Source of the DNA: Mycobacterium sp.
Lineage (GTDB): Bacteria > Actinomycetota > Actinomycetes > Mycobacteriales > Mycobacteriaceae
Reading direction: 5' to 3'
Assembly (NCBI RefSeq): GCF_002863225.1
Contig: NZ_PKEK01000010.1
Coordinates: forward strand, 188-64,187
Length of the DNA: 64,000 nt
The translations under genes and the position numbers were made by a program. Positions 1 to 947 of this stretch are shown piece by piece. Below the pieces are notes generated by a model. That model was not told the DNA's origin and ran no database searches. It saw nothing but the letters and a program-made list of their open reading frames with translations. Positions within the stretch are counted from its first letter, which is position 1. Every line of letters begins with the position of its first letter.

Positions 1-947
1 CCCGTCGATCCGGTGTCACCAGTGGCACCCGTCGCCCCAGTGGCGCCCGTTGCACCCGTGGCACCGGTCGCGCCGGTTTCACCGGTGGCACCAGTCGATC
101 CCGTCGCACCCGTCGATCCGGTGTCACCAGTGGCACCCGTCGCCCCAGTGGCGCCCGTTGCACCCGTGGCACCGGTCGCACCGGTCGCCCCGGTCGCCCC
201 GGTTTCACCGGTCGCACCAGTCGATCCCGTCGCACCCGTCGATCCGGTGTCACCAGTGGCACCCGTGGACCCCGTCGCCCCAGTGGCGCCCGTTGCACCC
301 GTGGCACCCGTGGCACCGGTCGCCCCGGTTTCACCGGTCGCACCAGTCGATCCCGTCGCACCCGTCGATCCGGTGTCACCAGTGGCACCCGTCGCCCCAG
401 TGGCGCCCGTGGATCCCGTGGCACCGGTCGCACCGGTCGCCCCGGTTTCACCGGTCGCACCAGTCGATCCCGTCGCACCCGTAGCCCCGGTGTCACCGGT
501 CGCACCAGTGGATCCCGTGGCACCGGTGGCACCCGTCGCACCCGTAGATCCGGTCGCGCCAGTCGAACCCGTTGCGCCGGTCGCACCCGTAGCCCCGGTG
601 TCACCGGTCGCACCAGTGGATCCCGTCGCGCCCGTGGAACCCGTCGCACCAGTCGAACCTGTAGCCCCGGTCGCACCCGTAGATCCGGTCGCACCCGTAG
701 CCCCGGTGTCACCGGTCGCACCAGTGGATCCCGTGGCACCCGTCGATCCCGTCGATCCCGTCGCGCCCGTGGCACCCGTCGATCCCGTCGCACCCGTAGA
801 TCCAGTTGCGCCAGTTGCGCCAGTCGAACCCGTAGATCCGGTGGCACCCGTATCACCCGTTGCGCCAGTCGAACCCGTTGCGCCGGTGGAGCCAGTCGCG
901 CCGGTTGCACCCGTGGCACCAGTCGCACCCGTGGCGCCTGTAGCGCC
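1..947 (-). repeat. 9-bp period coding repeat (Gly-X-Thr collagen tract) with higher-order 108-126 bp blocks
   Basis: The antisense ORF 13..1014 shows unbroken xPV periodicity. The block cccgtcgatccggtgtcaccagtggcacccg recurs at 1, 109, 235 and 361. Confidence 0.95.

Follow-up and report, generated by a model that had tools for sequence, protein, structure and literature searches.

A collagen-like Gly-X-Thr tail on a PGRS-type protein of an uncultured Mycobacterium and its predicted glycosylation enzymes

The DNA studied here ("the window", 64,000 nucleotides) belongs to an uncultured, water-borne Mycobacterium (NCBI RefSeq assembly GCF_002863225.1, contig NZ_PKEK01000010.1, positions 188 to 64,187 of the forward strand), and its left end carries, on the minus strand from 2186 to 3, a gene for a collagen-like protein that runs off the edge after 728 codons. 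The part of the protein next to the edge consists of 105 unbroken Gly-X-Thr triplets (the tract), preceded by a putative signal peptide, a conserved N-domain and a Gly-rich region resembling that of the PGRS proteins, while a gene for a glycosyltransferase (GT) lies beside it in the opposite orientation. In the explanation that we favour, and that we hold as a whole to be slightly better than an even bet, the 728 codons give the N-terminal part of a secreted surface protein whose tail was expanded in this lineage, would be glycosylated on Thr in the cytoplasm and would be displayed as a rod.

Sequence and architecture of the collagen-like gene

As read from the sequence and its alignments, the gene is organised in the order signal peptide, N-domain, PGRS-like region, junction with hinge, and tract, which corresponds to the following features (from the window edge inwards):

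3..947, minus strand: collagen-like tract, 105 unbroken Gly-X-Thr triplets (residues 414-728), truncated by the window edge
948..1028, minus strand: junction (GGIFGHDG) and poly-Gly hinge (GGGGPGGP) preceding the tract, recognised from the sequences of relatives
1020..1637, minus strand: PGRS-like Gly-rich region with GGxGGx repeats (residues 184-389), recognised from the sequence
1638..2033, minus strand: conserved N-domain of about 130 residues (non-PE PGRS family, Mycobacteriaceae), recognised from homologues, with the motif DPIINSL
2034..2186, minus strand: putative signal peptide (51 residues) with the start codon; long basic n-region, weakly hydrophobic h-region, cleavage site between A-K-A and D
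2187..2847, no strand: 660-nt spacer separating the two divergently oriented genes (collagen-like protein and GT)

In the minus-strand translation from 947 to 3, Gly is found at every third residue and Thr at the Y position of all 105 Gly-X-Y triplets, which divide into 67 GAT, 26 GST, 8 GDT and 4 GET. An earlier reading of this DNA from its letters alone (the sequence-only reading) had claimed at least 105 uninterrupted triplets with Ala, Ser, Asp or Glu at X, and the translation bears it out. Its additional claim that Pro is absent stands for the tract itself, where Pro, Lys and Arg are all at zero and acidic residues number 12; immediately ahead of it, a Pro of the GGGGPGGP hinge directly precedes the first triplet. 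Two bases are left over at the window edge beyond the last triplet, so that the tract is cut there; extended at 0.286 nm per residue, the 315 residues that we see would span at least about 90 nm.

The periodicity of the tract is far beyond chance. Positions 1, 2, 7 and 8 of its 9-nt units are fixed as G, G, A and C in 105/105 units, and all four bases are used at each of the three wobble positions; unique 31-mers make up most of the tract, and Tandem Repeats Finder reports higher-order DNA periods of 108 and 126 nt, which are most regular close to the window edge. Given the wobble divergence and the unique 31-mers, the periodicity has been kept through DNA divergence and is not merely the product of recent duplication. 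When all six frames of the 64 kb window were scanned, no second run of at least 12 G-X-Y triplets with Thr at Y appeared.

The Pfam Collagen model (PF01391), which the sequence-only reading had proposed as a check, matches the protein with 84 bits against a cut-off of 27.2 (E 5.9e-24) and thus corroborates its collagen-like nature, while the Scl and Lcl models of NCBIfam score far under their cut-offs on the window protein. When the tract is searched against protein databases, all matches are collagen-like proteins of Firmicutes, the best of them BclA-like, and no C-terminal fragment from the source organism is found among the matches. Pro-free GXT runs of about 30 triplets are present in proteins of Paenibacillus and Sporomusaceae. 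The background offered in the sequence-only reading, namely that bacterial collagens usually rely on Pro and charge pairs, is therefore only partly right: such Firmicutes runs exist, and Thr is the commonest Y residue of bacterial collagen-like proteins (48% in Gram-positives; PMC8968730). Moreover, T-G-A triplets are over-represented in bacteria, Thr glycosylation being the standard rationale (PMC11923368).

We take the minus strand as coding because its frame is continuous (728 codons without a stop, from the ATG at 2186 to position 3) with an ATG, a signal peptide, a homologous N-domain and a PGRS region, and because the same junction and tract follow a PE+PGRS N-terminus in M. bourgelatii. 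Together with the PF01391 score, this frame continuity and the homologues uphold the assignment of a collagen-like sequence to the minus strand, as first made in the sequence-only reading. That reading had also remarked that the gene is missing from its list of open reading frames (ORFs), which is true, for the sole reason that the lister omits ORFs running off an edge. At face value, the repeat might be something other than this coding sequence: the plus-strand Pro-Val-Ala ORF (13..1014) might be the real gene, or the repeat might be non-coding, decayed or an artefact of assembly. The plus-strand ORF is the exact antisense shadow of the tract, is open as well and has the same wobble positions as the sense frame, and assemblies do collapse in the repeat. 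All this nevertheless has to be set against the uninterrupted minus-strand frame just described, against the junction and tract that follow a PE domain in M. bourgelatii, against the end of the repeat at a stop codon in complete relatives, and against the recovery of an identical sequence, up to position 711, from many independent metagenomes, so that we regard such an alternative as highly improbable. Codon-position analysis was dropped as a guide to the strand, the antisense frame having the same wobble positions.

The N-terminal half places the protein within a mycobacterial family. Database searches with its first 214 residues found 42 homologues, all of them from Mycobacterium or Mycolicibacter, and several homologues of the N-domain are annotated as "PGRS repeat-containing protein" and have PF21526 (e.g., P0012 and P0017). 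On the window protein itself, PF21526 reaches 17.7 bits (E 0.005), under its cut-off of 27, and no match was found for the N-domain in Pfam; the AlphaFold2 model of this domain is poor (pLDDT 46). A PE domain likewise found no match in the window protein, the N-terminus of which instead resembles a cleavable signal peptide, a call made by reading the sequence and the family alignment and not taken from the output of a predictor. In the spacer upstream, neither a sigma-70-like promoter nor an Rfam match was detected, and the promoter, Rfam and tRNA scans of spacer and window found nothing; a terminator-like hairpin with a T-run is located in the spacer at 2279-2261 (minus strand), 75 nt ahead of the ATG at 2186.

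Relatives and the expansion of the tail

The closest homologue (L007, from a related metagenome-assembled genome, MAG) features the same junction and hinge (GGSFGHDG...HSGGGGPGGHG), followed by at least 28 GXT triplets (16 GAT, 10 GDT, 2 GPT) that are cut by the end of the contig. In complete relatives, 4-8 collagen-like triplets lead directly up to the stop codon, typically as GPSG: the C-terminus reads GGIFGDSGEPGLAGPTGPTGPTGPTGPSG in L031, GGIFGQDGANGATGETGHSGPSG in the complete genome of Ca. M. methanotrophicum (L047), GATGPTGPTGPSG in a long-read MAG (L008) and GGIFGAQGAHGAQGAQGAHGATG in M. servetii (L046, PE+PGRS), in each case immediately before the stop. M. bourgelatii (L043, PE+PGRS) reads FFGQDGHDGQNGQSGGGGGGGG and then continues for about 280 GXT triplets (840 residues; 96 GDT, 91 GAT and 80 GPT among them), to end in GDTGPTGP ahead of its stop codon. 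The N-terminus of the latter protein is a bona fide PE domain (PF00934, E 6e-26), and M. servetii has a PE domain as well.

Long tracts are found in three versions, those of the window, L007 and L043. The junction motif is common to all tail-bearing relatives, while the hinge is limited to the three long-tract versions (window 948-977; L007 about 8520-8555; L043 about 2560-2595), is missing from the short-tail relatives and is present behind both signal-peptide-type and PE-type N-termini. To judge from these sequences, the C-terminal module appears to have been exchanged between genes of the two types. Since the short tails of the complete relatives run into the stop codon, the ancestral state is a short collagen-like C-terminal tail, and on the same comparison the window tract is a lineage-specific, in-frame expansion of it, in which Pro at X has been lost. 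The sequence-only reading had hoped for a C-terminal trimerisation or anchor domain beyond the window edge; this now looks unlikely, inasmuch as the tract runs into the stop codon in complete relatives, and no C-terminal globular domain occurs in any of them.

More distant paralogues from Mycolicibacter are without the GGIFGxDG junction. Among the distant N-domain PGRS paralogues of Mycolicibacter and related genera (L012, L014, L021, L027, L028, L035 and L017), the tails end in GTPGTPGTPG, GSPGAPG or GLPGKPGIPG before the stop codon, with Pro and not Thr at Y.

Two of the relatives also illustrate how such genes fare in public records. The gene of M. bourgelatii (1414-5119 in GCA_010723575.1) has a frame break in the assembly near 4585-4650, where the called gene stops, and no Pfam match is on record for its product. 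In Ca. M. methanotrophicum, a complete N-domain/PGRS gene with a short tail lies at about 7900-9200 (minus strand) of CP097320.1, in a 3-kb stretch that is uncalled; genes of its class thus escape annotation even in a finished genome. This is a practical problem, for genes of this kind both break short-read assemblies and stay uncalled even in complete genomes.

DNA identical to that of the window was found in drinking-water, biofilm and aquatic metagenomes, and the closest match to the N-domain in scans of genomes and metagenomes, which do not include the source genome, is a Mycobacterium sp. MAG with 57% identity. Short-read contigs that include the neighbouring genes all stop within the repeat, most of them at window position 711. 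Unitig depths are 4-8x single copy vs. at most three copies in the window, which hints at roughly one to five further 126-nt units beyond the window edge, a figure too rough to rely on, and variant unitigs indicate that the tract is polymorphic between strains. Finally, DNA of the organism occurs at low, even depth in many runs that are labelled as RNA of one unrelated organism (window 1-12000 in X5, X10, X13, X18, X20 and X25-X33; several studies, 2013 to 2025), and such a low-level spread across unrelated runs is what a contaminant of laboratory water would produce.

The neighbouring enzymes and their link to the tail

Across the spacer from the collagen-like gene, four genes encode enzymes that could build or decorate a glycan:

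2848..5673, plus strand: soluble multidomain glycosyltransferase (GT2 domain, TPR solenoid, Rossmann-like "mid" domain, C-terminal domain)
5782..6579, plus strand: class I S-adenosylmethionine-dependent methyltransferase (Methyltransf_24, by Pfam), a 74% identical copy of which adjoins the L008 homologue
6566..7657, minus strand: TylF-type (sugar) O-methyltransferase (by Pfam), of 257 or 316 amino acids (aa) in other assemblies
7530..9751, plus strand: membrane AT3 acyltransferase with an SGNH domain, a distant relative of SucT

The GT is 883-941 aa long, depending on its start codon, the one at 3022 (883-aa version) being probably the true one. Pfam recognises PF00535 (GT2) and TPR_16 in it, no transmembrane segment was found, and its best sequence matches among solved structures are GmaR (E 4.6e-5) and SunS. 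The TPR solenoid is modelled with a pLDDT above 90 and the Rossmann-like "mid" domain at low confidence, while some homologues of the C-terminal domain match PF13524. When the TPR and "mid" domains together (the TPR+mid module, about 400 aa) were submitted to Foldseek, the top fold matches were SPINDLY and OGT, both protein O-glycosyltransferases with TPR repeats, a result driven by generic TPR similarity and accompanied by low TM-scores.

It is this module, 59-64% identical between species, that is associated with the tail. In the window, L007, L008 and L047, i.e., in all four signal-peptide-type loci with enough flank, no more than about 5 kb separates it from the tail-bearing gene, and it also adjoins the PE-type tail-bearing genes of L043 and L046, which makes six loci in all; gene order and domain fusions vary among the window, L007, L008 and L047. 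Near tail-less N-domain paralogues, it was found at 0 of about 20 loci, and the distant paralogues with Pro at Y listed above have no TPR+mid gene nearby either. Moreover, the module is fused to differing catalytic domains (GT2, P4H-type 2-oxoglutarate (2OG) oxygenase, methyltransferase), and it consequently behaves like a substrate-targeting unit. In M. bourgelatii (L043, 12514-14337), a P4H-type 2OG-Fe(II) oxygenase (PF13640) is fused to a TPR+mid module that is 61% identical to that of the window GT; this gene clusters with a tract in which a third of the X residues are Pro.

A functional link between GT and tail is thus supported by sequence, if unproven, and the suggestion in the sequence-only reading that the adjacent GT serves the tract proves plausible: the enzyme combines GT2 and TPR in the manner of SgtA, matches GmaR and SunS best, and co-occurs with the tail at six loci. 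On these sequences, and by analogy with characterised enzymes, we predict that the enzymes beside the gene probably attach sugars to the protein. The short-tail relatives keep the same GT genes, which implies that the enzymes are not there merely to stabilise a long helix.

The samples behind this linkage are small, and the distribution of the GT family as a whole counts against a dedicated role. The family is very large (more than 1900 matches, with several paralogues per genome), and, of seven members sampled in named genomes, two lie beside a tail-bearing PE_PGRS gene (L043 and L046), one is that of L047, one lies beside a tail-less PE_PGRS gene (L045) and three have no PGRS gene nearby. 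Part of the conserved linkage may also be synteny inherited by related genomes from shared ancestry. One can therefore argue that the cluster of GT, methyltransferases and acyltransferase is unrelated to the collagen-like protein and makes an envelope glycolipid or polysaccharide, Thr being glycosylated by Pmt after export or not at all. The three loci in question (M. paragordonae, M. paraense and another species) are large clusters of GTs, methyltransferases and sulfotransferases, the AT3-SGNH protein resembles SucT, the succinyltransferase of arabinogalactan and lipoarabinomannan, and a Sec signal peptide speaks against glycosylation in the cytoplasm. Such an unrelated cluster would nevertheless leave unexplained why the TPR+mid module and the junction with tail go together at six loci, across two N-terminal architectures and rearranged gene orders, and why the module is not next to tail-less paralogues; furthermore, the TPR-bearing GT2 enzymes of solved or tested function act on proteins or peptides. 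On balance, we consider it unlikely that the enzymes have nothing to do with the protein.

Two further observations concern the genes downstream. In the window, two overlapping ORFs (7530-9302, 590 aa, and 9254-9751, 165 aa) together make up the AT3-SGNH gene, and L001, L003 and L004 show the same split, whereas two further assemblies of this organism (L039 and L040) have an undivided gene of 724 aa; the split is a strain-level frameshift or a sequencing error. Between a gene for an HtrA-like protease (9854-11143) and the ackA-pta pair (12966-16264) lies a 549-aa ORF (11303-12952, plus strand) that every assembly of the organism conserves; it has no match in Pfam or NCBIfam.

Fate of the tract and comparison with known systems

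According to the explanation that we favour, the TPR+mid module of a divergent GT2-TPR enzyme would recognise the junction and tail, and the enzyme would O-glycosylate Thr (perhaps Ser) in the cytoplasm, as SgtA does for BclA3. The further domains of the GT, the two methyltransferases and the membrane AT3-SGNH acyltransferase may then lengthen and modify the glycan. Once the protein is exported, its PGRS domain would sit at the mycomembrane and the glycosylated tract would project from it as an extended rod of polyproline-II type, at least 90 nm long and most likely a homotrimeric collagen-like helix, which could form a hydrophilic nap or fibre suited to adhesion and biofilm life.

A number of observations weigh against this scenario. 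The 3' end of the gene is unseen, all short-read contigs breaking in the repeat, and no trimerisation domain was recognised in a protein for which the model of the N-domain is poor and the C-terminus lies outside the window. With 12 acidic and no basic residues, the tract lacks charge pairs to stabilise it, and repulsion would be expected between chains aligned in register. Relatives with tiny tails (5-8 triplets) keep the GT genes, and a modification tag seems the better description of such short ancestral tails, which counts against a helix. A cytoplasmic GT acting on a protein with a Sec-type signal peptide is topologically awkward; for the PE-type relatives, export would go through the ESX systems, which are known to handle folded substrates. 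Lastly, transcription has no direct support in the "RNA?" runs that we examined: four of them cover genes and spacers evenly at about 10x, as DNA would, while three others, one of them a metatranscriptome, yield contigs solely inside the collagen-like gene, these three being too sparse to read and biased, in that they were chosen by querying with the collagen-like gene itself.

The tract might instead be a monomeric, mucin-like spacer, heavily O-glycosylated, extended or disordered (polyproline-II-like) and never triple-helical, with the ancestral tail serving as a glycosylation tag. A stable helix would need more than the 4-8 triplets of the ancestral tails, which are nevertheless conserved along with the enzymes; the tract is without Pro or charge pairs, no trimerisation domain was recognised, and the unglycosylated peptide Ac-(GPT)10 is a random coil (PMC11923368). 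A mucin-like spacer, however, would need no perfect Gly at every third residue, whereas three lineages keep Gly without a break through 105 to about 280 triplets, which speaks for a helix. The same Ac-(GPT)10 is triple-helical when galactosylated (PMC11923368), and the Pro-free (GAS)n of Bucl8 gives a weak triple-helix signal in circular dichroism (CD) without glycosylation (PMC7682875). We thus place the mucin-like spacer on the unlikely side and retain the glycosylated collagen-like rod. The narrower proposal of the sequence-only reading, that the helix may be stable solely after Thr glycosylation, is a hypothesis that precedents such as Bucl8 weaken.

A broader generalisation can be offered tentatively, as a possibility that we rate clearly short of even: mycobacteria might possess a hitherto unrecognised cytoplasmic system of protein modification in which a shared TPR+Rossmann-like module, combined with varied catalytic domains (GT2, CgeB-like GT, P4H-type 2OG oxygenase, methyltransferase), would read a "GGIFGxDG + Gly-X-Y" tail on PGRS proteins of both Sec and PE/ESX type and glycosylate it (and also hydroxylate it where Pro is present), the tail having been expanded in some lineages into glycosylated, collagen-like fibres of the cell surface, 90 to more than 240 nm in length.

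If the favoured explanation is right, the PGRS family would gain a concrete biochemical feature, a conserved C-terminal modification tag able to grow into a fibre. A cytoplasmic route of O-glycosylation would also be added beside O-mannosylation by Pmt, the established O-glycosylation route in mycobacteria. The tract would further provide a natural (Gly-X-Thr)n of more than 100 triplets, free of Pro and of charge pairs, for testing whether Thr glycosylation precedes or enables triple-helix folding, which has been stated as an open question (PMC11923368).

An experimentally tested counterpart is SgtA of C. difficile, a GT-A + TPR enzyme that is encoded immediately upstream of bclA3 and adds beta-O-GlcNAc to Thr of the GPT repeats (PMC7157674); the exosporium glycoproteins of BclA type in Bacillus belong to the same comparison. 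Both systems associate a long Gly-X-Thr region with an adjacent GT2+TPR gene, with the difference that glycosylation is known for C. difficile and is here predicted from the genes alone; in both, too, the number of repeats is variable between strains. The differences are nonetheless numerous. The window protein has a signal peptide, a mycobacterial N-domain and a PGRS region but no exosporium leader, X is never Pro in its tract whereas BclA uses GPT, and its host is a non-sporulating actinobacterium; the C1q-like C-terminal domain of BclA (PF18573) has no match in the 728 residues seen, and complete relatives end at the tract. As for the enzyme, the window GT resembles SgtA and GmaR in being predicted as soluble, in having GT2 followed by TPR and in being encoded beside a candidate substrate gene, and differs from SgtA by its four-part organisation over 883-941 aa. 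GmaR is the O-GlcNAc transferase of Listeria flagellin, while SunS is a peptide S-glycosyltransferase.

Other comparisons each cover one aspect of the protein. Bucl8 of Burkholderia is, like the window tract, Pro-free and made of one or a few small-residue triplets; it differs in having 6-38 triplets with Ser at Y, a register held by a trimeric outer-membrane channel and no linked glycosyltransferase. In the cuticle collagen of Riftia pachyptila, glycosylated Thr at Y stabilises the helix in the place of hydroxyproline (summarised in PMC11923368), and both this collagen and the galactosylated (Gly-Pro-Thr)10 share Thr at Y with the tract; the comparison is, however, with an animal protein and with synthetic peptides in which X is Pro, and Thr glycosylation of the window protein is a prediction. 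With the PE_PGRS proteins, for which polyglycine-II sandwich models exist, the window protein shares the GGxGGx Gly-rich region, and its junction and tail recur in those of M. bourgelatii and M. servetii; it is distinguished from them by the lack of a PE domain, by its putative signal peptide and by a PF21526 score below threshold. A review of PE_PGRS proteins of 2025 contains neither "collagen" nor "glycosyl" (PMC11939664), and targeted literature searches returned no paper on Thr-rich collagen-like glycoproteins with a dedicated GT2-TPR transferase in mycobacteria or linked to PGRS proteins, such glycoproteins being established in spore formers. Altogether, the tract is chemically of a known type, if an extreme example of it, and what is new here is its fusion to a mycobacterial PGRS protein, its site at the extreme C-terminus, its origin in the expansion of a conserved short tail and its link to a modular enzyme family.

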